Shown here one piece after another: positions 2,298-38,898 of a stretch of 44,588 bases of DNA; position 1 is the stretch's first letter; every line of letters starts with the position of its first letter. A program made the translations under genes and the position numbers. This DNA is from a virus. Its lineage: Duplodnaviria; Caudoviricetes. The notes under the pieces were generated by a model, which saw nothing but the letters and a program-made list of their open reading frames with translations, was not told where the DNA came from and ran no database searches. Where the stretch lies: the IMG/VR virus record IMGVR_UViG_3300042355_000725, positions 1-44,588 of that record. One strand, given 5' to 3'.

Positions 2298-3130
2298 GCC
2301 GATGCCTCCGCAACGGGAGGGTTATCCCCTTGGGAATCGTCGCTCGTTGATCGCACCAGATAAAACGCATGGTGCCGCGACGTGGATCGAAGATGCCGCG
2401 ACCAAGAGATCCAACCGCGCCCCTGTTGCCCGTACCGAAGACCCCAGGAGTTGAACATATCAAACTCAAACTCAGTGCCGGTCCATCGCAAGTCGTCTAC
2501 GCCTACAGCGTGATTACCCGGCCCATCGGTCGGATAGACCCGGCCCTCGGCATCGAGGGTGGTAAATGCGTTGGTCGCATGGACCGCCACCACGCCTACA
2601 AACCCGGCTGCAAGTCCGCTTTCCAGTTCGTCCGAGGTGTCAACTCGATAGCACTCGATAGCCTTGAACCGCGCCATCGCTTCGCGGGCTTCCTGAGAAA
2701 TGTTTTTCCATAGGTATTCTTGATGAGGCACCATCGACTCAGGAGGCACACCGCGTTCGGTAATCGCTTTCATGCCGTCATCGAGCATCGAGCCAACATC
2801 CCGCCCGCCGTTGATTTGTGCGTATAGCCCTTCACCTGAGAGCGGTATATGCCGAAGACCGCGTTTCACTCGCGCTCGCTCTAGCGCCTTGGCTCCCGCG
2901 TAGCCGTTGCAGCTTCCCCGCTGCCCCTGGCTCTTGATCCATTGGGAGGCCGGAAACCACAATCTTGCAGCCATCCGTCGAGGATCCTTGAGGATCTCGA
3001 TCTTCTGCTCCTTCGTGAACATCGGCATTCCCGAGTCCGCATAGGCTGTGAACGACTCTGGGCGATGGTCTGGAACCAGCGTCCCTAACGGAAACTCCAA
3101 CCCATCGATCTCGATATATGGCAGACTCAT
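2294..3130 (-). CDS. Papain-family (C1A) cysteine peptidase
   Basis: Catalytic motifs QGQRGSCNG, GNHAV and FNSWG..YG..G. Confidence 0.88.
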   Translation of the reverse strand: MSLPYIEIDGLEFPLGTLVPDHRPESFTAYADSGMPMFTKEQKIEILKDPRRMAARLWFPASQWIKSQGQRGSCNGYAGAKALERARVKRGLRHIPLSGEGLYAQINGGRDVGSMLDDGMKAITERGVPPESMVPHQEYLWKNISQEAREAMARFKAIECYRVDTSDELESGLAAGFVGVVAVHATNAFTTLDAEGRVYPTDGPGNHAVGVDDLRWTGTEFEFDMFNSWGLRYGQQGRGWISWSRHLRSTSRHHAFYLVRSTSDDSQGDNPPVAEASA

Positions 3131-5205: not shown

Positions 5206-6006
5206 TTAGAACAGCATGTCCTGAGACAGACGTTCGACCGCTATTTCGCAATACTTCTCATCTAGCTCGATGCCAATTGCACGCCGCCCCATTTGCTTCG
5301 CCGCTACAAGCGTCGAACCACTTCCCATGAATGGGTCTAGCACAATCTGGCCTTCGTCTGTCGTTACGCGTATGATCTCCGCTATCAGCCCTACGGGCTT
5401 TTGTGTTTGGTGTTCCCTTTCGCTACTGTGCACTCGCTTTTCGTTGATTACGTTTGAGCCATCCAGGGCGTAGTATGTTGGCGTTCCGTTGCTGAAATGC
5501 ATAGCTAGTTCGTGCTGTGCCTTGAAACCATTGCCTAGCCCGGCGTTTGGTTTCGCCCAAACGATCAGCGATTGGTATCGCATCCCGCTTGACTCAATCG
5601 CTGGAACCAAAAACGGCACCATTCGCCAATCTGTAAACGCTGTGAATGTTCCGCCTGGTGGTATGTGTCTCGCACACCATCCGGCTACGTGTGACAGCAT
5701 CCAACCGATTCCGGCTGTTGTCATGTTGTCGTTTACAAACCATCCGACTTCACGGATGGTTTCGGACCGTAGGCCCATGCCTTTCGCCGCTCTCTTTCCT
5801 GCCTCGTTAAACCCGCCAGAGCAATATGGCGGATCTGTCACGACTGCGTTGACTGTTCCCAGTTGGTAGATGATTTCCCTGCAATCGCCATGATAAATGG
5901 TGATGCCCTTGTGATCGTAGTACGGTTTCAATGCAACTGATGCCATAACAATTGGATGCATCGAAGCCCCTGCAATGTCGTTTGGTGATTCCTTGAAATT
6001 TTCCAT
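5206..6006 (-). CDS. Orphan N6/N4 DNA methyltransferase (beta class), cassette 1
   Basis: VTDPPY, HQTQKP, VLDPFMGSGST, GIE. ATG and SD AAGGAAGG lie in the loop of attC1. Confidence 0.92.
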   Translation of the reverse strand: MENFKESPNDIAGASMHPIVMASVALKPYYDHKGITIYHGDCREIIYQLGTVNAVVTDPPYCSGGFNEAGKRAAKGMGLRSETIREVGWFVNDNMTTAGIGWMLSHVAGWCARHIPPGGTFTAFTDWRMVPFLVPAIESSGMRYQSLIVWAKPNAGLGNGFKAQHELAMHFSNGTPTYYALDGSNVINEKRVHSSEREHQTQKPVGLIAEIIRVTTDEGQIVLDPFMGSGSTLVAAKQMGRRAIGIELDEKYCEIAVERLSQDMLF

Positions 6007-14453: not shown

Positions 14454-14513
14454 TGAAAACGACAAACGTCCCGACAATGTGTCGGAAATGCGTCGGAACC
14501 GCCTGCGGCTTAG
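14436..14513. repeat. 18-bp direct repeat flanking a short hairpin between convergent genes
   Basis: GAACCGCCTGCGGCTTAG at 14436-14453 and 14496-14513; CCGACA-atg-TGTCGG lies between them. Confidence 0.85.
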
Positions 14514-16738: not shown

Positions 16739-18276
16739 ATCAACTCCACGTCTGCACTGAGTGTTGTTTGCAGGATTACCGCGCGATCGCCGTCATGTAA
16801 CGCCAATACGAAGTCGCCAACGTCCAGCCATGGGAACAAACCTAGTTTGTCTTCGACCAGTACCGGCCTCGCGTTTATCGCTTGGCTGTATACGCCAGAA
16901 GCATTGACATAGTTAGCCGCTTTCCAGCGTCCGCTATGAGGAGCCGAATAGGCTCCGATATAGAGTCCAGCCGTGCTTGTCTTGTCGGTGATCTGCACCA
17001 GCATCGCTCCCCATTGCGGGCTGGAGGCAGAAGGGATCCGAGGCCACATGGGCAAGGATTCGTCGCGAAGATCAACAAAGGTTCGCCCTTGCTTGTAAGT
17101 TACGGCTGCTGCCTCGGAGCCCAAGGGTATCGAAAAGTAGCCAGCCATCTCAATACGCTCGGTCCTGCGTGATGCGCGAAAGTAGCCCTTGATGGTTCGC
17201 TCGACGGCCCGAACGCATCGCTCGTAGGTGGCTGCTTGCGTGTCCAGCATGGATTGAGCGGCTGCGAGTCCCAGTCCTGCGAGTGTGCGTATCACGATCG
17301 GAGGCATCACCAACGAGGAAAAGTGCATCATTCCGCCAGAGCCCGATTGCGTCGGCTGGTAAAACGTCGGCTGCGTCAGCCCAAGATTGCCGATGCTGTT
17401 TTGAGGAAACTGAACGAACGGAGAAATGTAATCGGGACGCATTCGGAATCCATATCGATCCAAATACGGAACCGTCCACGTCCATTCCAAGTCTTCATAC
17501 CTTTTGATGATGTACCGCTTTGCCGGAGTGCCGACATTGAGGGCTGCTTGCAAGTTGACTTGCGGTTCGCCTGCTAATTCCATTCTCCATCGGCCAGGGT
17601 ACGAGTCCAAGTCGGCCCATATCACCGTCCCTGTCATTGCCGCAAGGGTGCGGAGGCGGTTCGGAATGTGCGAGTTGCGAGTGTACTGATGGAAACCTAT
17701 TGATGCTGCCTGTCGCACCGAGGCGGGAACGTCGGCATGTAGCCGAAATTCGCCGACTTGAAATGGATCACCACCCGACGCCAAGGTCGGGTCGATCGTC
17801 TCGGCGACGTGATACTCCGCCAGCAAGTTTTCGTCTTGCTCCTGGTTTGTGATGCCTTGGTTTTCGTAGATCGATTCGGCGTCTGTAACGGACGACCATG
17901 TGGATGGCGGGTTGTTTATGTCGGCAAAGTTGAGCGTGCCGACAATAAACTCGATTTTTACGATTTGCAAATCCTGGATACCAAGAAACTCAACTCTGCG
18001 TGGCACCAAAGGGTAGAGACGAATTTCGGTGTCCGGCCCGCCATCGTTCGCGCGCGATGTGTCCCGAACAATGCACTCTAACGAGCCGCTAAAGTCACGC
18101 TTTAGCAGTTTCTTCGCATCATCCTTCTTCATGCAGACATGCACTTCGTGAAACGCATGTCGCTTGAGCAGGACTTGGTTGTGGGCTGATTTACCAACCG
18201 CCGAAAAGACAGGGTATTCTTTTTTGGCTCCCGTAGATTCGCGAATGATGATGCGTTGCTGTGCTGGGTCAGGCAT
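16735..18276 (-). CDS. Putative tail/baseplate protein
   Basis: 513 aa, coupled to both neighbours; function inferred from position only. Confidence 0.5.
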   Translation of the reverse strand: MPDPAQQRIIIRESTGAKKEYPVFSAVGKSAHNQVLLKRHAFHEVHVCMKKDDAKKLLKRDFSGSLECIVRDTSRANDGGPDTEIRLYPLVPRRVEFLGIQDLQIVKIEFIVGTLNFADINNPPSTWSSVTDAESIYENQGITNQEQDENLLAEYHVAETIDPTLASGGDPFQVGEFRLHADVPASVRQAASIGFHQYTRNSHIPNRLRTLAAMTGTVIWADLDSYPGRWRMELAGEPQVNLQAALNVGTPAKRYIIKRYEDLEWTWTVPYLDRYGFRMRPDYISPFVQFPQNSIGNLGLTQPTFYQPTQSGSGGMMHFSSLVMPPIVIRTLAGLGLAAAQSMLDTQAATYERCVRAVERTIKGYFRASRRTERIEMAGYFSIPLGSEAAAVTYKQGRTFVDLRDESLPMWPRIPSASSPQWGAMLVQITDKTSTAGLYIGAYSAPHSGRWKAANYVNASGVYSQAINARPVLVEDKLGLFPWLDVGDFVLALHDGDRAVILQTTLSADVELI

Positions 18277-19909
18277 GCACCACCCCGCGTTGGCCGAAGG
18301 TTGGGTTGGGGGTCACTTGCTTTAAGACCTCGTTGATTCGCCACTCAGGCTGAAACGGTGGCTTGCCTGTTCGGAGCCACTCCTTGGCTTCGCGAACTCC
18401 CGCGCGGGCTGCTGCCTCCACGGTCATGGGATTGACTCCGCAACGACAGTTGTAGTCCCATGGGGGGGTGAAGTAGTCCCATACGGGATCGTCTCGGCGG
18501 TAGACGTTGGTGCCATCGAGCCCGAGGGACTCCATCTCTAGGTGATCGTGGCGCACTCGCGTGTCTCGGATCGCGTCGTAGGCTTGGTAGGGAAACGCGG
18601 CTGCGACGATCGGGTTTGATGCCAAGGTCTCCCTCCCATCGCGGAATGCTGCCTGGAGGTTGGTTCGGTAGACGTTCTCCAAGTGGGCCCGTCCGATGGG
18701 GGAGCCATCGAGAGCCTCACTGACGGCCTTCTCGAATCCCTTGCGGCTCGTCCCCTCGTCCACGTCGTAGACCAGGACGTTTCGGATGCGGTCGATGGTG
18801 TCGGTCGAAATCGGAGCCGTGATGAAGAACGCTCGCTCCTGCGCGTATTTGTCCACCGCCTCCCATTGCTGGCGGGTCATAATGTTTCGCTCGGCAAGTC
18901 GCTTGGCTGCTATCTCAATGAGCGGGAACCGCAATGCGTCGTCTGACTCGTCGAAGAACGTGAAACGCGGGAATGGTGGTTTCGGTGGCTTTTGGGGCGG
19001 TGTTTGCCGGATGGTGGTTTCGAACTCCTTCGCCAGCCATGGCGGGAAGTTGCGGTAGAGGTAATCCATCCCCGCCGTCCACGAGTATAGGAACGAGTCG
19101 CGGATATGGCGGTATACAAAGGTGCGGAATCGCCCGAGTGGTGTTGGTAGCCACGCCAGGATTTGCGGGATCGGAAGGGATCGCTTCTTCCAGAGCGAGT
19201 CCATGATCCGCGTTCGGACGGTCTGTGCGGCTCCCTCGGAGGCGATCAGGCTGCGTCCGATGATGCGGTCGAGGATGCTGCCCTTGGTTTGGCGGGGTGC
19301 GGTGGACAGTAAGATGTTGCTAGTAGACGGATCGAACGTGCCTCGGTTGCCGGTGGCGGATTTGATCTGGTTCGGCTCGAACGCCGCGTACACGGTTGCC
19401 CTTGCAGTGTTACCGTCTTTTGCGTTTACGAAAATTACCCCGTCGTGCCCTTCGTCTTTTGCGTCCCACAATTCCGCGTGATCGGGAGCGTCATCGCTGT
19501 AAGACATATCGATTACTTTTGGGTTCTTCATGCTGACATACAATGGAAAAACCCGGCCTTTCCCGCTGGCTTGTCGTTCAGCATGCAGGTTTGCCATATC
19601 TGGACTGCTTGTTGTCCATATTGCCCCTGGAGCTTTTTTTGAAGTTGCGCCAGATGGCTTAAATTCGTCGAAATCGAGTTGGCTTCCAGTCCCGTGATAT
19701 ACCACCAGCGGCTTCCCGTTCTCATCAACCACCCTCGAATCACCAAACCACGCCTTGAACTGCGGAGTCTCGGTGACGTGAGGCTTGGCGGGTTTCGAGG
19801 CTGTGCGACGAGCCGCGACCGATTGCGCGGACTCGACCAACTCCCAACGATGATTCTCATTGAGGCGGTAGGTCTTGCCGTTTTGGGTCTTTGTCTGGCC
19901 GGGTTGCAT
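18269..19909 (-). CDS. MuF/SPP1 gp7 head morphogenesis protein with N-terminal ART-PolyVal ADP-ribosyltransferase domain
   Basis: N-terminal FKAWFGDSRVVDENGKPLVVYHGT...AFEPNQIKSATGNRGTFD; C-terminal LENVYRTN...DTRVRHDH...PPWDYNCRC; SD AGAGGA before ATG 19909. Confidence 0.88.
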   Translation of the reverse strand: MQPGQTKTQNGKTYRLNENHRWELVESAQSVAARRTASKPAKPHVTETPQFKAWFGDSRVVDENGKPLVVYHGTGSQLDFDEFKPSGATSKKAPGAIWTTSSPDMANLHAERQASGKGRVFPLYVSMKNPKVIDMSYSDDAPDHAELWDAKDEGHDGVIFVNAKDGNTARATVYAAFEPNQIKSATGNRGTFDPSTSNILLSTAPRQTKGSILDRIIGRSLIASEGAAQTVRTRIMDSLWKKRSLPIPQILAWLPTPLGRFRTFVYRHIRDSFLYSWTAGMDYLYRNFPPWLAKEFETTIRQTPPQKPPKPPFPRFTFFDESDDALRFPLIEIAAKRLAERNIMTRQQWEAVDKYAQERAFFITAPISTDTIDRIRNVLVYDVDEGTSRKGFEKAVSEALDGSPIGRAHLENVYRTNLQAAFRDGRETLASNPIVAAAFPYQAYDAIRDTRVRHDHLEMESLGLDGTNVYRRDDPVWDYFTPPWDYNCRCGVNPMTVEAAARAGVREAKEWLRTGKPPFQPEWRINEVLKQVTPNPTFGQRGVVHA

Positions 19910-20150
19910 TGGTATTCCTCTTTGCTGCATGCGCCGCGTCTCGTATCGCTTGCTTGGCCTCTAATTCCTTGAGGACGGCTTGTTCTCTGGGATTCAGGAC
20001 TTCACCAAATCGAATTGCCTCATGCAATTCATCGAGGTTGATCGAATCGATTAGGTGTTGCTGATCGTCGGAAAGTCCTTCCTGTGTCGTCAACGGGAAT
20101 TGCAATGGGTCTATGGTTGAGTTTGCTGGGTTGGGTATGGGGGTATCCAT
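19857..20150 (-). CDS. Small acidic protein, candidate antitoxin/immunity protein
   Basis: SD GAGG; starts inside the last codons of the zeta-like domain and overlaps the MuF start. Confidence 0.55.
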   Translation of the reverse strand: MDTPIPNPANSTIDPLQFPLTTQEGLSDDQQHLIDSINLDELHEAIRFGEVLNPREQAVLKELEAKQAIRDAAHAAKRNTNATRPDKDPKRQDLPPQ

Positions 20151-23100
20151 TTCTTTGCCTCTTCAATGTACTCAGGGCTAGTCAACCCCTTGGCGATTGC
20201 CTCGGGTATGTCGCCAGCAAGATACCTGTGAGCTACGTTCCTATGCAACCTGTCTTCCAGTCCGTTTGCCGCGTTTTGATCCTCTTCAGCAACTCGCTGC
20301 TCCAGATATTTAATGGCCTCATTTCGGTCGGTGATTAGGCGCTTTTCCCCGCGATTATCGCTGCGATTGTCCACAACGTGAACCTCGACATCATGTCGCC
20401 TCTTCAAAAGTTCTAATGTTGCCTTTCTGGCCTTGATGTTGGCTTCAAAAGCAATGTTGGCGGGTACGGTACGCGGTAATTCTCCCCGCTTGTGCAAACC
20501 CATGGCTCGCTTGGCGATGCCGGTAAGTGCGGATTCGGGTCCGCGATCGATGAACACATGCAGAGGTTTGTATCCATTCGCGATCGCATCATCTAGTTTT
20601 TGTTCCAGTTTTGGATAGCTATCGGATGCTTGATCCAGAACGATCGGGTATTCCTGTTGATTGTAGTAAAGCCCGGTTGCTGTTCCCTTCCCTGAGCCAC
20701 CGCCACCAGCAAGAATCAGCATTCGATTATTGCCCTTGCCTTTCATGCCGGACAACGCCTCCGAATACAACCGTTTGTTCAAATAGCTACTCGCTTCGTG
20801 AACATCGGCAGCGTTCGTACCGACGTACTGCGGGAAGTTGGTGCGCCATTCGTCGGTGTTTAGCACTACTCCTTGTAGATTTCCTTGGGCATCATACATG
20901 CCGTTGGATTGCAAATACTTGGCCTTGTGTTGTTCGTAGTTTTCCGCCGCGTCTCGTTGCGTAATCTGGTCAATCGTCTCTAGTTGCGACTCCATCGAAG
21001 GCGTCTGCGATTGAGGCTGGCTCGGCGAAGACTGGGGATGCGGTGATACCGTCGAAGACGTAGGTTTCGGCGGTTGCGGTTGCGAAGGCTTTGGGGTTGC
21101 CGAGGAAGTCTGTGCATCGCCGGGTTGTCGTGCCGAAGCGTGCGCAGATTGCGTAGCATGACCTACAGGTAGCTTTTGCCCTGTCCCTGGGTCAAACGTC
21201 GGCATCGGTCGTCCAGGCTGCGCCATCGGATGCTGTTGCGTTTGCGCCGGTGCTTGTTGAACATGCTGGGGATGGGGTGACGGCTGTGGACGATCGGATC
21301 GTTGCCATCGGTGATGCTGGTTGAGCGTGTATTGCCGACCATTGAACGTGCGAACGGTTCCAGGTGCAAGATTCATCAATGCAGGATCCTCTTGTTCGAG
21401 TTCTGCAAGTCGCCTGCGCAATCGTTCCGCCTCTTCGAGCTTTGCAGTCGATTGAACGATCTTTGGCGCATTGTCCTCGGATTCGGGCTGGTTTCCGGTC
21501 AGTGCCGCTTCGACTTCTCGGAGTCGCTGTTGCTTTTTCTCCAACTCTTCTTGCTTGGCGAACTTTTGCCCGATCTTGGCTTGCAAGGATGCTTTGTTGG
21601 CTTCCTGGGCAGAAATAGCCTGAATCTGATCGTCGGCTCGCTTCTGCATGTTGGCCGAGTATTCGATCGACTTCAAAGACGGTTGCGAACTAGAATGGAT
21701 TTTGTCGCCGCTCGGAAGATCGAGAAAGAGACGCCGCGTCTCATGGTCTATCGGTGACAATTTCCATTTTTCCGTCCATGGCTCCTTACCATAGGAACGC
21801 GATCGCCAGCTAGGAAAGTATTCTGCTGGCTTGTAGTGCAACGGAACGCCTCGATATTCTCCGATGTGGATTGGCTCGATGTTTCCGCGATCCCATTCGT
21901 CCGAGTTCGCTGCTTCGTGATCGATTTCCGTCATTCGCGACGCAAGGGCTTCCTCGGCGGCTTTTCGTTCGTTGTAGGTGGTTTCACCTATCTTCATCTC
22001 GAAGTCTGGACGGCTGGCAAAATGAGCCAAGTCGGCTTTATGCCGTTCCAGTTGCGATTGCATTTCTGGTAGCGACTTGTCCGCTTGAGAAAGCAATTCT
22101 CGTGTCTTGGTTTGCTCGCGTATGTGACGTTGCTGGCCCTGTCGCAGACGCTTGATTGCGTCCTCTAGCTCCACTTTTTCCATCGTCAGAGGATTACCCG
22201 ATGCGATCGCCATCAACTGGTCGGGGGTAACGGTTTCCGTGTCTGCGTCCGCGACTTCTCTTGCATCGCTCTTGCCAGCCATGACTTGGTTGATGAATTT
22301 GGCCTTGGTAGATACGGTTTGCCAGAAGAAAGAATCCAACGAACCTTCTTGAATGTACGGGATGTTCAACAATGGCTTGCCCAGCTTGGCCAGTTCGTTG
22401 CCGTGCCGGAAACCGCGTCCGACACGTTGCTCTAGCGCTGATGGGGTCCAGGGAACGTCCAAATGGTGCATGGCCATGACCTTGTTCTGGACATTGCATC
22501 CCGTGCCCAGTTTCTTCGTCGATCCAATCGCGACAAGGATTTCTCCGCGTCGCATCTTGTCCATGGCGTCTTCTTTGGCTTGACCCTTGAGCGCCGAAAA
22601 ATCGGCAATCTTCTCTCGGGGAATCCCACCCGCTACCAGCTTGTCGATGATGTCGTCGTACAATCGGAAGGATCCTGTGCTTCCGAGGTTTGCGTCGGCA
22701 AACTCTTCATTGAACGTGATGTCTTCATCTTCTTCCTGGCGTTCTTCGCTTTCTGCATCGTCACTGACGACCGCCTCGGCTGCTCGCGATGTGGTGGTAG
22801 ACGGATTGACACCCACATCCGAAAAGATCAGTTGCGTGAACCCTGGGTTTTCCCTTGAGAGCCGTAGGACGTTGCGAACGCATTGATTTGTTTTGCTGTT
22901 AGGTAGATCCGGCGCGTTGTCGTCTAGCAGACGCAAATCGACGGCTCCCTTGCGGCCATCGGTACAAATGACCAGCATGTTGTCTTCGCCCTTTTCGGCC
23001 TGACCACGTTTTCCGCTGAGTGCCTTGGCTCGCTCTTGCAGATTGCCCATGAGGGCTTCGATTGCAGGATGCTTTGGAGAGACGGTTTCTTGATCGACCT

Positions 23101-26100
23101 TCTTTGGCCTTAGAATTACCGGGGATCCAGCCGGACGCGACGGATCGTTTATTTCCGCCGCTTGCGCAGGTGTTAGCTTGAGATCGTCCGCCCGTTGCAC
23201 GTCGATCACTTGTCGAGCCATCGCCATCAGCTCGGGAACATTGACAAACTTCGAGAATCGATCCGTAGGCTTGTATTCGCCAGCCACGTTAAAGTTATGC
23301 CGCGTTTCGATCGATCCGAAGACGCTTGCCCAATCATCGAAATTGGAGATTCCACGTTCTGCAAGTGCGTTCGGCTGCAAATACCGCTGCATCGTGTACA
23401 GTTCGGCCATGGTGTTATCCAAAGGCGTTCCTGTGGCAAACACAACACCACGGCCACCGTTGTGTTCTTGCAAGTATCTGCAACGCATCAGCATCGTGGT
23501 TGCTCGCTGGCTTCGGCCTTGCGGGATACCCTTGACTCGGTTTTGCTTGCTGTAGGTCGGTAGAGTCTTGTAGTAGTGGGCTTCGTCCACAAACAGTTGA
23601 TCGATTCCTGTGTCCTCGAACGCTACCGCATCATCCTTGCCCGCAGCCGTCAAGATGCGTTCCAGTTTTACTTTGAGGTTTTTGATTGCGGTTTCGATTT
23701 GCTTGGCGCGATTGCGGCCATCTTTTCCGCCCTCACCCTCTGCGGCATTTTTTGCCGATTCCATTTCCGCGATTTCATCTCGCATGTACTGCGCTTCCAC
23801 CTCGGGGCGCATTTTGAGCATGTTCAAATTGTCATGCGTCATAATGACCAGATCGTAGTCGCCCGTCGCCATGCGTGAGACAAGCTCCTTGCGCTTCTTG
23901 GCTGTCATGTTCCCCTGGGTACTGAGGATTCGAGCGCCAGGATAGAGCAGTTGAGCATCTCGGGTAATTTGCTCGATATTGGCCTTGAGACACGCGATGC
24001 ACGGCTTTTTAGCCAAGCCTAGACGCCTCAATTCCATGGCGCTTGCGATCATGGCATAGGTTTTGCCCATTCCCACTTCGTGGGCAGCTAAAGCCGTACC
24101 GTTGGTAACGACTTGCCAGACGAAATTGGGAATGTGCGGATGCAACTTGATCGCCGGGTTCATTCCTGGGAATGTTTGGTGCGATCCGTCGATTTGCAAA
24201 TCGCGAATGTTGTTGAAGTTGTCGTTGAAGTATCGCGCAAGACGAATCGCGCGATCGTCGTCTGACCAAACCCAATCCCCGAACTTGTCCTTCAACTCTT
24301 GGACTTTGGCCGCAACATCGTTGGTCGCCTTGCGATTGACGACTTCATTTCCGTCAGCATCGACGGCCCGTATTTGATGCGTTCCGGTTTCGTCTGTGTA
24401 TTCGTCGATCCCTCCCTTTACTTCGATTTTTCGGCCTGTCAGTGCCGCTTCAAGTAACTTGATGAACCCGACTCCATGCGTGTCCCATTGTTGCGTTTGA
24501 TATATTCGGCCACTACTGTACCGCCTTTGCCCCTCGGAAGACCATTTGGCTTTCCAGCCTCCGAGCCCTCCTGCAAGAGTAGAGTGCGAAATCTGGAAGT
24601 AGCGAGATTCCGTATTGAGAGTGTCGGCTGCAAATTGAGCAACATCCGAAGGTGGAAGCCATGCAGCGCCGAGGTTGACAGAGATTTCGCTGATGTCCTT
24701 ATCCTCGGGTTGTACCTTGGAAAGAGCATCGACGTTTACCTGGAACTTTGGATCGGCTTCGGCTGCGGCCTTGGCTGCAATCAACTTTTGTCGAACATTA
24801 CCCGACAAGTAGACCGCTGCCTGTTGCCATCCCGCGCTGGGATCCTCGAAAGCAATGCCTGATTGCGACAGTTCTCGCCCCGCTTGCTCAATCGTCTTCC
24901 CTGTGATCTTTGCAATGTGCTCGATGTTAACTCCACCGAACTCATGGAACGATACTCCGATGGCATCCGACACGTTGTCTACTTTGTCCAAGCTCGGAGT
25001 GTGCCGTACTGTATCCTTGAAAAAGATGTCTGCCTTCTTTGCTTGTTTGGTTCCAGCGTTGTAGTTCTCAAGAGATCGCAAAAAGAACTGGTCGTCTCCC
25101 GAATCTTGCATCGCGCGAGTATTAGCACGATCGTTAATAGGTCCAAATTGGGCGACGAACTTGTCGTATGCTTGGTTCAACGCTTCGCGATCCTTTGAGG
25201 CATCTTCTCCCTTGAGCTGCGTATTGATTGCGGCTCGACCGGCTGCAAGAATCGCGAGTTGCCCTTCGATGCGGGCTAGCTGCGTCTTGTTGGCCTCTCG
25301 CTGTACCAGTCCGCCTCCCACTCGCTGAAATAGCTTGCCATCGATAATCCGATAGCCACCTTCGCGAACATCATCAGGCGCTGGCATCGACTCAGGAATG
25401 AATGCCTGCTTCGAGTTTTGGACTGGGTGATACACACCTTCGGGTAGGTTGTCGATAAACTTTGCCAGCTTAGTGCGTAGCTGGTCGCGACCGACCCGAC
25501 GCCGATCCTCTGCGGACACTGGGGTTCCGTCTTCGAATACTAACCGGCGTTTTTTCGATACTGGATCGACATCGACTCTGACGGGTCGCCCTAAAGCCTC
25601 AGACAACTCTTCCGGCGATGCCGCAGACACTCCCTTTTCTTCCGCCGATCGCATGGTCGCGCTGCGATCCAATCGACCAAGAATGTTTTCTGGGTGTTCG
25701 GCAAAATACTTGTTGATCGTGATTGGTTCACCGCCGTCAGGATCGGGGACTTGTGTCGTTTGGGTCCAATCCGGCCCTGGGACACGTTTGCCATCTTTCC
25801 AGTGATAGAGTCGGCCAAGCGAATCAACCGTGATTCCGGTGAAACCTGGTTGTTTTGGATCGGCTTCGCTAGGCGTGTTTTCAAGTGTGACAGGTTGTTC
25901 CCCAGGTATTCTCTTGCGCAGGATCACCATGTCGGTGACTACCGAAGTACCCGCGTTCTCTTGGTGCATTCCAGTCGGAAACCGAACGGCTGCAACAAAC
26001 TCGCACTTGTCAGCAAGCAATTTACGAATCTTGTCGTCCGGTTTGTCCATTGTGCCGGTGCTGGTGATGTGCATGATGAGCCCGCCCGGCTGTGCAACAT

Positions 26101-28954
26101 CCGCCGACTTCAAGAAAAAGTAATCGTGTATGTACGCTTGATGCCTGTCATAGCGAGGATCGGCAACTTGATATGCGCCGAACGGCACGTTGGATCCAAC
26201 CAAACCAAAAAAGTTGTCTGGCGATTGAAACTTTTCGAACCCTTTGATTTGCACGTTCGTTGACGGGTACAGTTGCTTGAGCATTGCTCCCGTCGTTTTC
26301 TCCAGTTCGACCGCTGTTGTGTGCGTTCGGCCCGCTAGGTCGCTTGGCATCATGCCGAGGTAGTATCCGATCCCGGCAGAAGTTTCGAGGAATCGTCCTC
26401 CGTTGAACCCTAGCTTTCGAGCGATGTCCCAGTGCGCCTGAACCACATCCGGGTGCGTGTAGTGGGCATTGAGAATCGAACCCTTGGTTGTTTCAAACTC
26501 TTCGTCCGTCAAGATAGAACGCAATAGCTTGCGTTCTTTGTCCCAGTCCTGCTTCTTGAAGTCAGGATCGTATTTGAGTTGTTCTTCATCACGCTCCTGC
26601 GACTCGTCGTCGTAAGCTCGCGGATTGTTGAACAAGGCAGGAAATTGGCCCCATCCAACGAACTTGGAAAGAGTCTCAGCTTCCTCCGGGGTAGGTTGAC
26701 GCCCCTCTTCCTGCAACATTCGCATCGTTTGCAGGGCTGCAATGTTTTGACGAAACTTCGTCTTGAGTCCGCCTTTAAGAAACTCGTTCGTTGTGTAGCG
26801 GAAATTCCCAGCCGCAAGATCGGTAGGGGTTTCTGGGGTCGGAGGCGAAGTGACGATCGCCTCGACGTTAGAGGCTACTCCTCGGGAATCGCGAAGAGTT
26901 GATCGTTGACCAGTTCCCGAATCACTTCCTTCGGAGTCCCCTGATCGATTAGCGTCTGCTCCAGTCTTTGAGCGGAGTCTACCATCATCGTCAGATAACC
27001 CGGAGTCTGATCCCCCAGTTCCTCCAGTAATTCCGGCCTGTTCGCTTCCAGGTGATCCAGAAGGGCTTCTTCCAGATATGGACTTCGGCTCTCGGGGTCC
27101 ACTGTCTTTGCTCTCTCGTTCCAGTCCATCTTTGGCCTCCGCATCCAGTTTACCACGATTCAAATGATGATGTAGGAGTTTCGCCGCAAAATCCGACGCT
27201 TCTTCAATCGATCCAAACTTTTCCTCGTAATCGGTTCGTTCCTTGGTCGGGGAATAATGCCGTATTGTATGCTCGTATTTACCGCCTGCTTTGCGAGCGA
27301 TGTTGATCTGCACTTTGTGTCCATTTTTCAGAACCAACTTGTGCGCCCGCCGCAATGTGTCTGCCCATCGATTGTGATTGGTGTTCCGCTCCTGCAAATC
27401 CGGGGCTTTCTGCTTGGAATCGGCGGTTCCAGTTTTTTTGCCGCTTTCAATCTCTTGGCGTTGCTGCTCCGAGGCTTTTGCAAGAACTTCGCCCGGAATG
27501 AACATTCCGCCGTAATACTCATGTCCGTCGATAACGAGTGGGTTTTCCTTCGTATAGCCTTTCGGGGCATGTTTTGCCGACATGAATTGCGGTTGCTGTA
27601 AAGCGACCTTTGCCGCTTTTACTAGCTCCGCAGCCGACAACACTCCCTCTCCAACGGCTGCGGCTACGTCTAGGCCCATCATCGTTGGATCTTGTCCCAT
27701 GCTGGGATCGCTGCCATCGTTCATGCCTCCCATGGGATCTGCGTTGGGATCCATGCCCATTCCGCCGTCCATGCCTCCCATGCCGGGATCCATGCCCATC
27801 GCTTGCGGTTGACGCTGAGCTTCGAGCGCCTGCTTGGCTAGTGGCTTGTGCTTCACGTCGAACGGGATCATGCGTCCGAAGATATTGATGATGCCGGGCT
27901 CTAGTAGCTGCTCTCGCATGTCGTTGATGATCGTCCGCACCCACGGGTCGAGGTTCGCGTAGAGGATCCCCATGGGAATCAATCGGCCTTGCCAAGAGCC
28001 TGCGTCGTCGGCCTTGAGAACGCCATCGGGAACGAACATCCCGCGTAGCATCTCCCCATCGAGATCCCCAGGGTACTGGAGGATGTGCGACGGGTTCGCC
28101 GGGACGGTGGCGCGTGTGAGGTTCCACATCGGGTTGCCTTTGTCGTCGTACTGGGCTGGAGTGGTCGTTACCCCTCCGGCTTCAATCTGCTCGACGATTT
28201 CGCGGGCCAGTTCCCGGTTGGCGACTTCGTGCGGGTTGTCTACGGTCCCGATGTCGGTCGATCCCTCGGGGTAGCGCAGGTCGGCCCCACCATACGCGTC
28301 TTTGTGCATGAACAATCGCCGAACATCCACAGCACCGCCATCGAGGTGCTTGTCGGCCCAAGCGCGATACGAGCCTTGCAATACGGTTGTGCCGTAGTGT
28401 TCGCCAGGAAAAGCGTTGTAGGAATGGAACAGACACTCGGGATGCCGCAAATCCAAGTAGCCTTCGGGGGCTCCCTTCACTCGTCCAAACCGAATGCCAC
28501 AGGATCGCCCGGTGTCGGGATCGAGCAGCATTCGAACATCGTTTGCGTGTCGCTGTTCGATGGTGGAGATTTCCCACGTCCCAAACTCGTCAGAACGCTC
28601 CCAGATGACTTCGCACCCGGCCCAGCCATAGATTTGAGCGGACGCGAGATGCTCGATGGCACAGTCCCATAGCTTGCGAATCTGACGCATCACCCAAGCG
28701 CCGACGGCCTCGTCCTGGCACATCACGCCCACTTGCCATTGGCCGTTGACCTCGTAGCCAAACTCGACGCCTTGGACGATCGCCCGCCGGGCTGCTAGTC
28801 CGATCTGAATCGTCTCGTCCAGAAGCATTTGCTCGATGATCTGAAACGTGAGCGGTGGTAGCTTTTGGTGCCGTCGCAGCCACCATGTTTGGATCGGCGC
28901 GTAGCCTTTGGTCTTCGCGGTCGGTCGTTTCAGTGCGTCGTTGATCTGGTTCAT
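20111..28954 (-). CDS. Giant polyprotein (2,947 aa): Mu gp29/DUF935-like portal + DarB-like N6-adenine methyltransferase + SNF2 helicase + zeta-toxin-like P-loop domain
   Basis: Portal motifs (DETIQIGLAARR, AQIYGWAGCEVIW, HYGTTVLQGSYRAWADK); MTase FLETSAGIG and NVPF; helicase AHEVGMGKT, FVDEAH, ATGTP, QRVGRGFR; C-terminal LILAGGGGSGKGT...RGELPRTVP. SD GGAGG before ATG 28954; no other portal candidate in the genome. Confidence 0.87.
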   Translation of the reverse strand: MNQINDALKRPTAKTKGYAPIQTWWLRRHQKLPPLTFQIIEQMLLDETIQIGLAARRAIVQGVEFGYEVNGQWQVGVMCQDEAVGAWVMRQIRKLWDCAIEHLASAQIYGWAGCEVIWERSDEFGTWEISTIEQRHANDVRMLLDPDTGRSCGIRFGRVKGAPEGYLDLRHPECLFHSYNAFPGEHYGTTVLQGSYRAWADKHLDGGAVDVRRLFMHKDAYGGADLRYPEGSTDIGTVDNPHEVANRELAREIVEQIEAGGVTTTPAQYDDKGNPMWNLTRATVPANPSHILQYPGDLDGEMLRGMFVPDGVLKADDAGSWQGRLIPMGILYANLDPWVRTIINDMREQLLEPGIINIFGRMIPFDVKHKPLAKQALEAQRQPQAMGMDPGMGGMDGGMGMDPNADPMGGMNDGSDPSMGQDPTMMGLDVAAAVGEGVLSAAELVKAAKVALQQPQFMSAKHAPKGYTKENPLVIDGHEYYGGMFIPGEVLAKASEQQRQEIESGKKTGTADSKQKAPDLQERNTNHNRWADTLRRAHKLVLKNGHKVQINIARKAGGKYEHTIRHYSPTKERTDYEEKFGSIEEASDFAAKLLHHHLNRGKLDAEAKDGLERESKDSGPREPKSISGRSPSGSPGSEQAGITGGTGGSDSGLSDDDGRLRSKTGADANRSGDSEGSDSGTGQRSTLRDSRGVASNVEAIVTSPPTPETPTDLAAGNFRYTTNEFLKGGLKTKFRQNIAALQTMRMLQEEGRQPTPEEAETLSKFVGWGQFPALFNNPRAYDDESQERDEEQLKYDPDFKKQDWDKERKLLRSILTDEEFETTKGSILNAHYTHPDVVQAHWDIARKLGFNGGRFLETSAGIGYYLGMMPSDLAGRTHTTAVELEKTTGAMLKQLYPSTNVQIKGFEKFQSPDNFFGLVGSNVPFGAYQVADPRYDRHQAYIHDYFFLKSADVAQPGGLIMHITSTGTMDKPDDKIRKLLADKCEFVAAVRFPTGMHQENAGTSVVTDMVILRKRIPGEQPVTLENTPSEADPKQPGFTGITVDSLGRLYHWKDGKRVPGPDWTQTTQVPDPDGGEPITINKYFAEHPENILGRLDRSATMRSAEEKGVSAASPEELSEALGRPVRVDVDPVSKKRRLVFEDGTPVSAEDRRRVGRDQLRTKLAKFIDNLPEGVYHPVQNSKQAFIPESMPAPDDVREGGYRIIDGKLFQRVGGGLVQREANKTQLARIEGQLAILAAGRAAINTQLKGEDASKDREALNQAYDKFVAQFGPINDRANTRAMQDSGDDQFFLRSLENYNAGTKQAKKADIFFKDTVRHTPSLDKVDNVSDAIGVSFHEFGGVNIEHIAKITGKTIEQAGRELSQSGIAFEDPSAGWQQAAVYLSGNVRQKLIAAKAAAEADPKFQVNVDALSKVQPEDKDISEISVNLGAAWLPPSDVAQFAADTLNTESRYFQISHSTLAGGLGGWKAKWSSEGQRRYSSGRIYQTQQWDTHGVGFIKLLEAALTGRKIEVKGGIDEYTDETGTHQIRAVDADGNEVVNRKATNDVAAKVQELKDKFGDWVWSDDDRAIRLARYFNDNFNNIRDLQIDGSHQTFPGMNPAIKLHPHIPNFVWQVVTNGTALAAHEVGMGKTYAMIASAMELRRLGLAKKPCIACLKANIEQITRDAQLLYPGARILSTQGNMTAKKRKELVSRMATGDYDLVIMTHDNLNMLKMRPEVEAQYMRDEIAEMESAKNAAEGEGGKDGRNRAKQIETAIKNLKVKLERILTAAGKDDAVAFEDTGIDQLFVDEAHYYKTLPTYSKQNRVKGIPQGRSQRATTMLMRCRYLQEHNGGRGVVFATGTPLDNTMAELYTMQRYLQPNALAERGISNFDDWASVFGSIETRHNFNVAGEYKPTDRFSKFVNVPELMAMARQVIDVQRADDLKLTPAQAAEINDPSRPAGSPVILRPKKVDQETVSPKHPAIEALMGNLQERAKALSGKRGQAEKGEDNMLVICTDGRKGAVDLRLLDDNAPDLPNSKTNQCVRNVLRLSRENPGFTQLIFSDVGVNPSTTTSRAAEAVVSDDAESEERQEEDEDITFNEEFADANLGSTGSFRLYDDIIDKLVAGGIPREKIADFSALKGQAKEDAMDKMRRGEILVAIGSTKKLGTGCNVQNKVMAMHHLDVPWTPSALEQRVGRGFRHGNELAKLGKPLLNIPYIQEGSLDSFFWQTVSTKAKFINQVMAGKSDAREVADADTETVTPDQLMAIASGNPLTMEKVELEDAIKRLRQGQQRHIREQTKTRELLSQADKSLPEMQSQLERHKADLAHFASRPDFEMKIGETTYNERKAAEEALASRMTEIDHEAANSDEWDRGNIEPIHIGEYRGVPLHYKPAEYFPSWRSRSYGKEPWTEKWKLSPIDHETRRLFLDLPSGDKIHSSSQPSLKSIEYSANMQKRADDQIQAISAQEANKASLQAKIGQKFAKQEELEKKQQRLREVEAALTGNQPESEDNAPKIVQSTAKLEEAERLRRRLAELEQEDPALMNLAPGTVRTFNGRQYTLNQHHRWQRSDRPQPSPHPQHVQQAPAQTQQHPMAQPGRPMPTFDPGTGQKLPVGHATQSAHASARQPGDAQTSSATPKPSQPQPPKPTSSTVSPHPQSSPSQPQSQTPSMESQLETIDQITQRDAAENYEQHKAKYLQSNGMYDAQGNLQGVVLNTDEWRTNFPQYVGTNAADVHEASSYLNKRLYSEALSGMKGKGNNRMLILAGGGGSGKGTATGLYYNQQEYPIVLDQASDSYPKLEQKLDDAIANGYKPLHVFIDRGPESALTGIAKRAMGLHKRGELPRTVPANIAFEANIKARKATLELLKRRHDVEVHVVDNRSDNRGEKRLITDRNEAIKYLEQRVAEEDQNAANGLEDRLHRNVAHRYLAGDIPEAIAKGLTSPEYIEEAKKWIPPYPTQQTQP
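26875..27129 (-). CDS. Nested out-of-frame gene (84 aa, acidic helical, weak TnpV-like pattern)
   Basis: GGAGG-6 nt-ATG at 27129; MDWNERAK...HLEANRPELLEEL...YLTMMVDSAQRLEQTL...IRELVNDQLF; the host frame here is a G/S/D-rich linker. Confidence 0.65.
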   Translation of the reverse strand: MDWNERAKTVDPESRSPYLEEALLDHLEANRPELLEELGDQTPGYLTMMVDSAQRLEQTLIDQGTPKEVIRELVNDQLFAIPEE

Positions 28955-29220
28955 ATTTTTCCTCCGCAAGCCTTGTCAACGTAAAGTTGCACGGCCTTGG
29001 ATTTCGCTTGTTGTGCTAGTTCTTCGTCACCGTAGGCTCGGAGCCAAAGTTCGTACACTTGTTGGTAGTTGGTCGCGTCGTAGTTCCCCTCGTCAATCTT
29101 CCGCTTTGCCTGGAGCGCTGGAAGCATCTCCTGCAGCGCCACGATCTGCTCGGCGTGCAGATCGAACGGGTTTAGCCCGTACTCCCATCCGACTCGGATC
29201 CTTCGTTCGTATTTTTTTTT
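28951..29220 (-). CDS. -1 frameshift extension of the tail assembly chaperone (gpGT-like; fusion ~182 aa)
   Basis: The -1 frame is open from the A9 run (29212-29220): KYERRIRVGWEYGLNPFDLHAEQIVALQEML... to the stop at 28951. Confidence 0.7.
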   Translation of the reverse strand, partial: KKKYERRIRVGWEYGLNPFDLHAEQIVALQEMLPALQAKRKIDEGNYDATNYQQVYELWLRAYGDEELAQQAKSKAVQLYVDKACGGKI

Positions 29221-29498
29221 ACCGCTTCGGCAACTTCACCGAGTCGGCTCCACAGTTGGAACGCCATGGTCGGAGTCGCGTCGGTGACTCCCATCTCTTT
29301 AAGTTCGTTTGCGGCTGCGCGAAGGAAATCGCGCGATGCGTAGACCAGTCCGTCACGCCGTTCGAGCGGGAACCGCTTCTCCATGTCTTCGAACATTAAC
29401 CGCGTCTCCAAGAGATCGACCGCCACCGTCACCGGCTCGGCTCCCGTCTTTTGGATGACGACTGAAAACGATTCGTCTTTCAGGTCGATGTGTGCCAC
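29172..29498 (-). CDS. Tail assembly chaperone (gpG-like)
   Basis: 108 aa ending AVKKN... over GTA AAA AAA AAT; SD AAGGA, GTG start. Confidence 0.65.
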   Translation of the reverse strand: MAHIDLKDESFSVVIQKTGAEPVTVAVDLLETRLMFEDMEKRFPLERRDGLVYASRDFLRAAANELKEMGVTDATPTMAFQLWSRLGEVAEAVKKNTNEGSESDGSTG

Positions 29499-29516
29499 TT
29501 CGATTCGATCCTTTCA

Positions 29517-31187
29517 CTAGGGGTTGTTTGGCGGTTGATTACCCGGACTGCCCGAGTAACTCGATGAACCGCCTTTTCCAGTTCCGTCGGTCAAAATGCC
29601 TGCCGAATGACTTTCGGCCAAATCCCGGCAAACGTATTCGATTTCCCATTTCGCTGCGAATACGGGTTGGCAATAGAACGTGCCGAGGTAGGCAGGCTTG
29701 AAACTTTTTTCAATCATCTTCAACTGCACGTTGCCAATGACGAGCTTCGGCATCGGGATCTCGTACCCGACGCGCACGGCCATGCCTCGGTAGATAATCT
29801 TGGTAGCGGCTCCTGGGTACACGGGAAGTATCGATGGAATTTCCGCGCGGCTCCCGCGTCCGGCCTGTTGCAGTTCATTTAGGTTAATCACGCCATCCTC
29901 TACCACTTCTGGCCCTAATGGGATCCACTGGTCTTTTTCTAAGGCGGACTGTTTGATGTCGAAGTACGCCTCAAAGTGTGCCCAACTAGCGTTCGGTGGC
30001 GGTAGCGGGTTGCAAAGGGCTCCAGCCAATGGCGTCGTTCGGTCGTAGACGATTTGCAAATCTTTCACCTCTGGGATTTCAGGGTGTTCGTGATTTACCA
30101 ATCGGTCCTGATTCACTGGGTCGGGAGTGAGTTGCGATATACCTCGGCAATGCTCCATGCCGTGCATCGAGTCTTCCCATTCGTCCCAAGTGACCCATAA
30201 TTGACTAAATAAACCCGACGCCCCGAGCCAGTTCGACATATCGCCCAGGGTGCGGTAAGAAATCGATGCCGACACTCCTGTGCCGAAGATGTCTTCCTCC
30301 ACATCAATCTGATCGACCAGTATTTGTGATCCGCTCCCGCGAGCGTACTCAATTCTGCGTAGTGCAATTTGCTGAAAAATAAACCACGCATACGACATGG
30401 GTTGATCGGCTGCAATCTCTACTCGCATCGACAGCGAGTGCTTGGTAGTCGCCATTTGAGAGCGAGATTTTGTAACTCGATGCGATGCCTCGATATGCAC
30501 CACGCCGGGCGGGTAGGGGTTCCGGGTCGGAATTTGCGTGTCGGTGACAGTGAATCCCAACGTCGCCTTGTCCGCACTGAGTTCGTATCGCTGCGACCGC
30601 TCGTAGCCAACAGGTTTGGTAAAATCAAGCTTGTCTCGATAGAAGTCGGCGTTATGGTCTATTTTGTTTGGTCCATCAAACGTCTTAGCTACCGTCAACT
30701 GCCCGGATATGGTGCGAGTGGTCCATCCACCTGGATCCAACGAGTAGGATTGGGAGTAACTAAACGAGCCAATATGCTCCAGTTCCGATCCCGAACTTTC
30801 GGCAATAAAAATGCAAACCTCTACCGACCAACGAACCTCGACGGCGGTGGGTGCGTTTGCCGCTGCCATGGGCCGCAATGCGAGAAGTTTTGGGAACGGG
30901 CCTCCCTCCACGTCCGTCATGCTGGCGCTGCCGCCTACATTCAAATCAAACCCGATCCCGATCCCTGTTGCTTTGAGGTTGCCACCGTTGCGGGTCAATA
31001 TGCGTCGTATGTCTTCGATCGTGTCGCCGACGCTTGGAACAACGACGGCATCTACCTCGATCTTGATTCGATGGTATTGTGTTTGCCTACGGTCGGGTGT
31101 TGGAACAACCTCAATCTCGACGGTGCGTTTTTGCCCCATGCCGAGCGAGATTCCTTCGTAGGTAAGTTCATCGAATGCGGCTGGCAT
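29517..31187 (-). CDS. Putative distal tail/hub protein
   Basis: 556 aa, beta-rich, directly downstream of the TMP-like gene. Confidence 0.55.
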   Translation of the reverse strand: MPAAFDELTYEGISLGMGQKRTVEIEVVPTPDRRQTQYHRIKIEVDAVVVPSVGDTIEDIRRILTRNGGNLKATGIGIGFDLNVGGSASMTDVEGGPFPKLLALRPMAAANAPTAVEVRWSVEVCIFIAESSGSELEHIGSFSYSQSYSLDPGGWTTRTISGQLTVAKTFDGPNKIDHNADFYRDKLDFTKPVGYERSQRYELSADKATLGFTVTDTQIPTRNPYPPGVVHIEASHRVTKSRSQMATTKHSLSMRVEIAADQPMSYAWFIFQQIALRRIEYARGSGSQILVDQIDVEEDIFGTGVSASISYRTLGDMSNWLGASGLFSQLWVTWDEWEDSMHGMEHCRGISQLTPDPVNQDRLVNHEHPEIPEVKDLQIVYDRTTPLAGALCNPLPPPNASWAHFEAYFDIKQSALEKDQWIPLGPEVVEDGVINLNELQQAGRGSRAEIPSILPVYPGAATKIIYRGMAVRVGYEIPMPKLVIGNVQLKMIEKSFKPAYLGTFYCQPVFAAKWEIEYVCRDLAESHSAGILTDGTGKGGSSSYSGSPGNQPPNNP

Positions 31188-37734: not shown

Positions 37735-38898
37735 TTAGTTGGTTTTCTTGCCGTTGATGAGTCCGACCCAATACTTTTCCTTGGCTTCGGCGTCTTCGGA
37801 GTTTGGTGGTTCGGCCACCGACATACGAGCGAGTTTGGACCCGCCTCCCTTGCGGAAGGTGGCTGTCTTGAACGTGCCCTCGGGGATCACTTCGCGCGAT
37901 CGCATGAACTTTTCGGTTTCCCCTTCTCGGGGCTTGTTGTAGGCATCGAGGGAAAGCCGCTGGGCTGCGATGCGAGCGCTGTAGCGTGCGAACTCTTCGT
38001 CCATGATGCGACCGCTATCTCGAAGGGACTCCAGTCGCCCAAGTAGATCGCGATGGTAGGCTGTCTCGGCAAACGCTCTTGCCGATCGGACTTGGGCCGA
38101 CATGGTTTGAATCTCGGGAGAAGTCACCATGGGAGACCCTGCACCGCTACCCGCTGCGCCCTGGCCTCCGTTGCCCATGACTTGTTTGATGTTATCGACG
38201 ATGTTGGATGCGTCGGTTCCCTCGGGAAGTGCAATGCCGCACTCTTGGAGCGCGTCCACAATCAAGGCAACAACATCGCTTCCTTGATCGTTCCCGCCGT
38301 CAGACGGTGGAGCCATGTCCATGCCTGCGTCTTGGCCTGCTGCCATGTCCATACGCTTAATCCTCGGTGTGTAGTAGTTAGGGGAAACGCCCATGCGGAT
38401 GACGCATCCCATGGTGATCGGCTCGGCGGGTACAAACGGCCCTTGGCTGTGATCGACCGGGTAATCAACGAGGTCTACCGAGGTAATCACGTCCGCGTAG
38501 GTGTGCCCGTGCCCGTCGCGAAATTCAGGGAATATCACAGGGCTGACGAAGATGGAGTTGTGCTCCACCTTCTCGATGGCGCTTGGCGTCAGAACCTCCA
38601 CCGTGATCTCTGCGGATTGCCCGTCGGGAGTCACTTGGAAGTCCACCATCCGGCCTTCGGTGTTGTGCGCTCCGCGCGTATCGCGTTTGGAGAGGCTGTC
38701 CATGGTGATCGGACTGAGCATCTCCAAGTCGTCGAGTTCTGCGTGGTTGAAGTGCATCGGAACGACATAGCCCGCGTCGGACAGTCGCCGAAACTCTTGC
38801 TCCCAGTGCTTCAATCGATCAGGAGTGACAGTGACGCTTCCGTCACCGCTTTGGTACTCGTTGACCGATAGAACCGCTTTGCGAAACACCTTGCCCAT
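37735..38898 (-). CDS. Mu gpI-like prohead protease/scaffold
   Basis: VPMHFNH, FVSPVI, ITSVDLVDYP, then a low-complexity and helical scaffold C-terminus. Confidence 0.78.
   Translation of the reverse strand: MGKVFRKAVLSVNEYQSGDGSVTVTPDRLKHWEQEFRRLSDAGYVVPMHFNHAELDDLEMLSPITMDSLSKRDTRGAHNTEGRMVDFQVTPDGQSAEITVEVLTPSAIEKVEHNSIFVSPVIFPEFRDGHGHTYADVITSVDLVDYPVDHSQGPFVPAEPITMGCVIRMGVSPNYYTPRIKRMDMAAGQDAGMDMAPPSDGGNDQGSDVVALIVDALQECGIALPEGTDASNIVDNIKQVMGNGGQGAAGSGAGSPMVTSPEIQTMSAQVRSARAFAETAYHRDLLGRLESLRDSGRIMDEEFARYSARIAAQRLSLDAYNKPREGETEKFMRSREVIPEGTFKTATFRKGGGSKLARMSVAEPPNSEDAEAKEKYWVGLINGKKTN

Follow-up and report, generated by a model that had tools for sequence, protein, structure and literature searches.

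A Mu-type phage portal whose 2,500-residue tail carries a DarB-like methylase-ATPase and a zeta-type kinase and is probably removed in the prohead

Fusions of phage portal proteins to single-domain effectors are already published: the available text of two papers on polyvalent proteins describes portal fusions of PBECR, 2H, InPase, Nudix and ART domains and proposes their injection (Iyer 2017, PMC5512222; Iyer 2022, PMC9503650), and the processing of polyvalent proteins is ascribed to built-in zincin peptidases (PMC5512222). The portal-cargo gene analysed here resembles polyvalent proteins in that a single late-gene polypeptide joins disparate enzyme domains, and its chain, encoded among virion genes, unites at least two disparate conflict domains. 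Likenesses extend to its dyad of LPD36-methyltransferase and SNF2 modules and to the cargo types of zeta-like kinase, ART, 2H, PBECR and InPase. The portal fusions in the available text of both papers carry single small domains, whereas the tail described here has 2,500 aa, and where polyvalent proteins use zincin peptidases this tail appears to use the prohead protease. No HExxH or HExxxH signature occurs in the present protein (P0001), and HExxH is found in the tail of 10 of 141 relatives.

The head of phage Mu (gp29 (H), gpI, gpZ and gp30) is similar in its Portal_Mu family portal, its Mu-like protease-scaffold and a portal gene adjoining MuF, as well as in a motif, of Leu/Ser type in Mu, that is common to portal tail and protease-scaffold. 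The Mu portal tail is absent from the virion structure; its last 124 residues are missing from the cryo-EM model, which is ascribed to protease I (PMC11915804). The Mu tail, in contrast, comprises just these 124 aa, carries no enzyme and has a different motif, and the phage studied here is unlike Mu in its integrase, its lambda-D-like decoration protein, the absence of a sheath match and the position of the portal gene after the tail genes. P1 DarB is a protein of its own, bears a capsid-targeting sequence at the N-terminus and needs other Dar proteins (PMC9024508), whereas the DarB-like module here is a portal tail. MuF polymorphic toxins likewise combine a head protein of temperate phages with a variable C-terminal toxin and a small downstream gene, but their carrier is MuF in one or two copies and not an essential 12-copy portal (Jamet 2017, PMC5576092). 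The T4 internal proteins (CTS) and the SPN3US ejection proteins are further examples of head proteins that have short targeting peptides, are processed by the prohead protease and are ejected; in them N-terminal propeptides are removed from separate proteins, while here modules would be freed from a portal polyprotein (PMC3012670, PMC10052503). A portal-DarB fusion, or cut-site grammar of this kind, was not found in the open-access literature; the figures and FTP supplement of PMC5512222, outside the scope of that search, may list a portal-DarB protein. With respect to that literature, the size of the tail and the cut-site grammar are apparently new.

The window, meaning the whole stretch of 44,588 nucleotides that was analysed, is a whole Caudoviricetes virus record (IMG/VR IMGVR_UViG_3300042355_000725) rated 95% complete. 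It encodes an integrase, a terminase, a protease-scaffold, a decoration protein, a Mu-gp36-like adaptor and MuF (Pfam, PHROG, Atlas). The portal-cargo gene (20111..28954, minus strand) has an ATG at 28954 with an SD-like word upstream and is one stop-free frame of 2,947 aa, against 57–113 stops in each of the remaining five frames. The uninterrupted ORF claimed in the initial annotation therefore stands, as does its estimate of a fifth of the genome (19.8% of the window). Twenty of 22 listed runs contain the stretch, all of them lake or freshwater metagenomes stored as contigs; six (X3–X8) were examined, as assembled contigs and not raw reads, and the two runs flagged as possible sources were set aside. 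An 18.5-kb contig of run X8 covers 27000–28500 unbroken with 13 substitutions and no gap, and the 11 listed substitutions create no stop. Run X5 spans 19510–27658 with 3 substitutions and no gap, and 19500–30000 is not covered in one piece by any of four runs compared. Continuity across 27500–27900, proposed earlier as a check on the gene, is thus seen in assembled contigs, and no stop or frameshift after the portal domain lies in the window's frame or among the 11 listed X8 substitutions. The portal-cargo fusion is real.

The portal core (aa 1–385; 27800..28954) is of the Mu gp29/Portal_Mu type. Pfam places Portal_Mu over aa 38–203 (E 3e-8), with Helicase_C and Zeta_toxin as further matches on the 2,947-aa protein. 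The AlphaFold2 portal model (pLDDT 83.5; 51-row alignment) has the P23-45 portal as its best match among 48,161 solved chains (Z 20.1, rmsd 8.3, 335 aligned), and all 50 matches listed are portal, neck, connector, tail-complex or virion entries; a PDB sequence search with the portal profile gave weak portal matches alone (E 0.15–0.99). The DUF935-like portal of about 385 aa that had been read from the sequence is borne out by family and fold, and the contrary outcome named at the time, an N-terminal domain without a portal fold, was not what structure prediction returned. Residues 4–385 of the model align with residues 3–378 of the Mu portal (Z 16.1), so the cargo tail starts where the resolved Mu portal stops. 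No second portal gene was found among 41 ORFs (Pfam, PHROGs) or 13 (NCBIfam), several ORFs still being without a family, and the portal has one match in its own virus record; the product is the sole detected portal of a terminase-bearing genome. The portal had no match among 50,697 records of cultured phages. By its family, the portal would form a dodecamer at the head vertex, and portal architecture suggests that the tail faces the head interior.

Behind the core lies a low-complexity G/M/D/P linker (27665..27820), as reported in the initial annotation, ending in predicted cut site 1 (Met426/Gly). It is followed by a conserved short helix-like segment (aa 431–457; 27584..27664), within which sample contigs branch into two cargo alleles at 27629–27658, by predicted cut site 2 (Met458/Ser; 27575..27589) and by tag 1 of the APxG...GGxF type (27491..27571), which also opens the MuF-fused DarB cargo in loci L020 and L027. 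A small domain at aa ~520–610 (27125..27397) is common to relatives by tblastn; aa 459–640 had no usable match in Atlas.

The DarB-like module comprises LPD36-like helices with an N6-adenine methyltransferase bearing NVPF as motif IV (25910..26794) and an SNF2-type ATPase (22085..24184) with intact Walker A/B and motifs III and VI. Both the LPD36-MTase-SWI2/SNF2 domain order and full-length similarity to annotated DarB-like proteins are present, with a PHROG "DarB-like antirestriction" match at E 0. Over 88–98% of its length, the 1,821-aa module shares 31–34% identity with the annotated DarB-like proteins of Bcep22, SopranoGao and VvAW1; like these and P1 DarB, it has intact ATPase motifs. The DarB-like cargo proposed earlier is thus upheld, and its motifs fall where they had been placed: the methyltransferase motifs at 26392 and 26194–26177 (earlier 26392–26180) and the SNF2 motifs at 24082–22406 (earlier 24086–22405). 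The published DarB-like motifs NPP(Y/F), TP and GxG(G/A/S) are here NVPF, TH and GWGQ; NVPF is found in 15/16 and TH in 12/16 sequences, and GWGQ in the window, so these are conserved variants and differ from the motifs as printed. A PDB sequence search with the module gave no match. The module may shield incoming DNA from restriction.

Predicted cut site 3 (Met2527/Asn) and tag 2 of the NxxHRW type (21305..21382) precede a Q/P/S low-complexity linker (20975..21298), which corresponds to the Q/P linker noted earlier, and the zeta-type kinase (20165..20974). Tag 2 also opens the ART-MuF gene and, in relatives, stand-alone kinase genes, among them those in L004 and L006. The zeta-like nature first ascribed to the last domain is confirmed by Pfam (Zeta_toxin), by a P-loop at 20713 and by the model (pLDDT 93.7), which matches gonococcal zeta_1 (6epg) with Z 23.1, rmsd 4.2 and 13% identity over 261 aligned residues, against Z 12.5 for streptococcal zeta; a PDB sequence search with the kinase profile gave no match. 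As in gonococcal epsilon_1/zeta_1, a UDP-sugar kinase with rewired order, the catalytic-type Asp precedes the P-loop (PMC5923241), and the idea that the rearranged kinase is new was dropped in view of this subclass. The Asp segment stands before the P-loop in 90 of 149 matches and none has the streptococcal order, 59 being unscored. Asp2701 and Asn2714 show no variation and 25/27 retain Lys2756, with residue equivalence to zeta_1 taken from order and spacing and not from residue-level alignment. The window kinase differs from zeta_1 in having no OB domain and a candidate antitoxin downstream. It may phosphorylate UDP-sugar wall precursors.

That candidate is a 97-aa ORF (19857..20150, minus strand) overlapping the fusion stop. 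Relatives of it lie directly behind the kinase in L068, L080, L081 (= L010) and L082, and, with an ATG and a purine-rich upstream word, entirely inside the polyprotein linker just past the kinase domain, in its +1 frame, in L083 (2237–2494), L086 and L087 (both 2249–2488, and identical at the overprinted ORF). The partner gene co-travels in 6 of the 8 strongest kinase loci and in L068; no relative was found in L084, L085 or 17 weaker kinase loci, and the 97-aa ORF itself, used as a query against viral contigs, gave no match, the relatives having come from kinase loci. Its recurrence makes the ORF a good antitoxin candidate, and a toxin-antitoxin pair with the kinase is probable. Small acidic ORFs also stand behind zeta-like genes at L004:18860–19010, L006:15040–15300, L013:20660–20900 and L027:13987–14230; they are unrelated to the 97-aa ORF (tblastn) and possibly represent further antitoxin families.

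Reading of the linkers of relatives revealed a recurring motif, [R/K]-[M/L]-[S/G/A], of which the scaffold half in the 38898–37735 product also has five conserved sites. Counted in a set of relatives that are not independent, and with motif and tags picked by eye from the sequences counted, [RK]M[SGA] reaches 6.3 per 1,000 aa across the 160 aa that follow the portal core (126 sites, spread over 95 of 141 non-redundant proteins, against a shuffle mean of 20 and maximum of 32) and 10.1 per 1,000 aa in the scaffold (34 sites in 12 of 13 proteins; shuffle 4), values attained by no shuffle. Its frequency is 0.29 per 1,000 aa in portal cores (15 sites, against 33 by shuffle), 0.30 in 18 capsid proteins, 0.21 in 13 other window genes and zero in 19 neck and 22 g556 proteins. 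Six short tag types open cargo modules, and 77 of 112 occurrences have a motif site in the 16 aa upstream, the background being 299 of 4,300 random positions. A tag is present in 75/98 long tails, against 3/35 short ones, and tags are also found at the start of MuF-fused and stand-alone cargo ORFs. In place of Arg/Lys, the three sites of the window show Met, Phe and Leu ahead of the Met; relatives have Arg in 43/94 and Lys in 6/94 at that position. DarB bodies show no depletion of the motif, which occurs there at chance rate (28 sites, with 22 expected from shuffling), and within the enzyme two [RK]LG sites persist in 16/16 and 13/16 sequences, so cut specificity would have to rest on accessibility.

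The gene at 37735..38898 (minus strand) encodes a Mu-like prohead protease (aa 1–155) fused to this scaffold. The protease part has an Atlas feature score of 0.95 and a TM of 0.74 to Mu-like_Pro clusters, and its His52 and Ser119 are invariant in 13 sequences; a Pfam scan of the product found no match to the Mu-like protease. In Mu, taken as a control, AALSA occurs at portal 427–431, in the unresolved tail, and three times in the protease-scaffold, and is absent from the capsid protein. The distribution of [R/K]-[M/L]-[S/G/A] suggests a scissile site, Met/Leu followed by Ser/Gly/Ala, at which the Mu-like prohead protease likely cuts. Since linker and scaffold share the motif, the same logic is found in Mu, and the Mu portal tail is missing from the virion, the cargo is probably cut off in the prohead.

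The reading that we favour, to which we assign a probability of about 0.6, is that the sole detected portal carries a 2,500-residue tail that is cut off in the prohead by the Mu-like head protease, and that the DarB-like methylase-ATPase and the zeta-type kinase are ejected with the DNA. The portal would be made as the front end of the 2,947-residue chain, with its tail facing the head interior and tags keeping or placing the cargo in the head. Cuts at 426, 458 and 2527 would yield a portal of ~47.5 kDa, a DarB-like piece of 230 kDa and a kinase piece of 46.5 kDa. Both enzymes would leave the head with the DNA and enter the host, where the DarB-like module would protect the entering DNA from restriction and the kinase would act on UDP-sugar wall precursors, the 97-aa protein restraining it in the producer or lysogen. 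The initial annotation, which had up to 12 copies of the cargo loaded through the portal and injected, is partly supported: the copy number is plausible, but the cargo, as the C-terminal tail of the portal itself, could leave only once it had been cut off, and the likely release step, the swappable tails and the kinase partner gene had been missed. Twelve tails amount by calculation to ~3.3 MDa, or 3.5–4.6% of an assumed 55–60 nm head, less than the ~40 copies of 250-kDa DarB in the P1 virion (PMC9024508). Twelve tails of 274 kDa each may prove burdensome: in T4, portal with GFP fused C-terminally takes up at most about half of the ring and changes expansion (PMC9958956).

Alternatively, the tail could be cut or degraded and then leave with the scaffold, or a host protease could cut it before assembly, its enzymes acting late in the producing cell and not in the next host, by methylating progeny DNA and weakening the wall before lysis. 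Pieces of the scaffold, with the same motif, are expected to exit the head, which is in keeping with such a fate, as are the stand-alone tagged kinase genes in L004 and L006. A zeta kinase would also fit lysis (PMC5512222, PMC5923241). We nevertheless regard action in the producing cell as unlikely: at 230 kDa the piece far exceeds scaffold peptides in size, different lineages would have no reason to fuse such cargo to portal or MuF, P1 DarB is a virion protein (PMC9024508), and a separate phage DNA methylase gene is already present at 5206–6006.

Less likely still is cargo that stays on the portal and works in or at the head, for example by methylating DNA during packaging, with no ejection. 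A DNA translocase-methylase would be well placed beside the DNA channel, and the window's cut sites are non-canonical; against this, each module is flanked by motif sites, and the 2H/Acb1-like, PBECR RNase, ART, InPase and zeta kinase tails of relatives need cytoplasmic targets.

Translation of the cargo from in-frame internal starts, as for Mu gpZ, which begins inside gene I according to the record annotation, would make the fusion a by-product of cassette insertion, with most portal short or trimmed. Met followed by Ser/Gly/Ala is a common protein start, and the cargo genes of many relatives are separate ORFs. An SD-like word precedes 0/66 motif Met codons, however, against 39/57 gene starts and 19/242 internal Met codons. 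Met458, the internal Met of MSAKHAPKG, has none, as first stated, in a genome where several clear genes also have none. Leu at the motif Met position is encoded by a codon other than TTG in 27/34 cases, and codons flanking the motif vary synonymously, so the motif behaves as protein and appears to act at that level. Internal starts were thus not supported, and we consider this route to the cargo quite improbable. A programmed -1 shift giving a short portal was likewise not supported: a slippery heptamer occurs in the linker of 5/28 loci, at different places and never in the window, and since none is conserved, no route to a short portal is seen. That the long ORF is an assembly artefact joining the portal gene to a neighbouring cargo gene is highly improbable and largely refuted, for in spite of the repetitive linker at which sample graphs branch, a stop at aa 386 in L009 and a frameshift in L014, the junction is spanned by the X8 contig and the same single-frame fusion recurs in relatives down to 40% portal identity.

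This portal is present in 32 viral loci, of which 11 continue in a single frame into DarB-like sequence (tblastn) and another continues likewise as far as a frameshift; two have the DarB-like module further downstream, fused to MuF. The unit of site, tag and DarB rides on MuF in L020 and L027. DarB-type Pfam modules are found in 11/16 portal proteins of 1,620–5,158 aa (10/15 without the window's own cluster), and P0148 repeats the whole window architecture at 69% portal identity. Median tail length among the 141 non-redundant relatives is 358 aa, and 56 of them have tails of more than 500 aa; the length windows of the searches and cut contigs bias this survey. The NVPF methylase appears in just 5/141 because the set stops at 2,000 aa for database proteins. 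Other tails bear 2H/Acb1-like, PBECR3, LPD1, LPD3, ART, InPase, topoisomerase I and zeta domains. A recurring Pfam-less tail domain, which by eye looks ParB-like (DdrB-type), is found at aa ~690–980 of the L006 portal ORF and in L010–L013, P0149 and P0152. Sixteen of 18 genome matches are titled Planctomycetota, one being a complete Pirellulaceae chromosome, and the other two are 2–3 kb contigs in other bins. That chromosome (L068) holds a prophage with a tailed portal and the same kinase and partner, and Novipirellula galeiformis holds one with an ART tail (P0109), which makes the proposal testable.

Identity between locus L004 and the window is 97% over 38864–27434 and 88% from 19303 onwards; between 27434 and 19303, just two short patches align, at 67–72%. 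The portals share 99% identity and the DarB-like proteins 36%. In trees, the window portal groups with P0144 (support 100/99) and its methylase-ATPase with P0148 (100/100); grouping the methylase-ATPase with P0144 was rejected at p-AU 9e-53, in a test of 9 of 15 rows for a group named after the first trees were seen. In runs X5, X6 and X7 one portal contig joins window-type cargo at 27629–27658, and in X7 a second contig departs there with letters that read as an L003-type linker, so both cargo alleles seem to co-occur in samples, with the qualification that unitig graphs do not prove phase. These comparisons indicate that near-identical phages have exchanged the 8-kb cargo. The portal ORF also varies at L009:9950–11110, which has the stop at portal aa 386 where L006 reads on, and in L015, L016 and L017, which have a common portal in ORFs of 474, >911 and 496 aa; these differences are assembly errors or natural cargo loss. 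A second swappable cargo is present in the gene at 18269..19930 (minus strand), which carries tag 2, an ART-PolyVal domain at the N-terminus and MuF (Pfam); in the sister phages L003, L004 and L005 the MuF part is 99% identical and the ART domain is absent.

A broader interpretation, offered tentatively and with some doubt, is that in a clade of Planctomycetota phages the portal tail would serve as a programmable 12-copy delivery dock of protease site, tag and enzyme, with cassettes of up to 8 kb swapped between co-occurring strains. The present allele would eject a 230-kDa anti-restriction motor and a wall toxin, its antitoxin gene kept adjacent even if overprinted, and particles shed by lysogens would therefore act as a weapon against non-lysogens. 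The favoured reading, release by the prohead protease followed by ejection, would turn the general idea of injected portal- or MuF-fused effectors into exact predictions of cut positions, fragment sizes and cutting enzyme. The tails of this portal family would provide an inventory of likely anti-defence proteins, many of which belong to no named family, and a portal that tolerates a tail seven times its size, as is suggested here, would be useful for phage protein delivery.

The order of terminase, protease, capsid and tail genes, then portal and MuF, is unusual and is kept in relatives (window 14510–43057). The regions 29517–31187, 31187–33283, 16735–18276 and 14510–16738 have no family match in Pfam, PHROG or NCBIfam. 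Just before the portal, a 108-aa ORF (29498–28951, minus strand) has a run of nine A near its end, and its -1 frame continues without interruption as far as a stop that overlaps the ATG of the portal. L003, L006, L007, L010, L012 and L013 retain the A run, and the arrangement looks like a G/GT frameshift of tail-assembly chaperones. The product of 2294–3130 (minus strand), among late or lysis genes, has a weak papain-family peptidase match (Pfam E 2e-4). Tail- or head-fibre-like genes (PHROG) occupy both ends of the window (2–1084 and 43546–44586), and the record is therefore probably broken inside one fibre gene.
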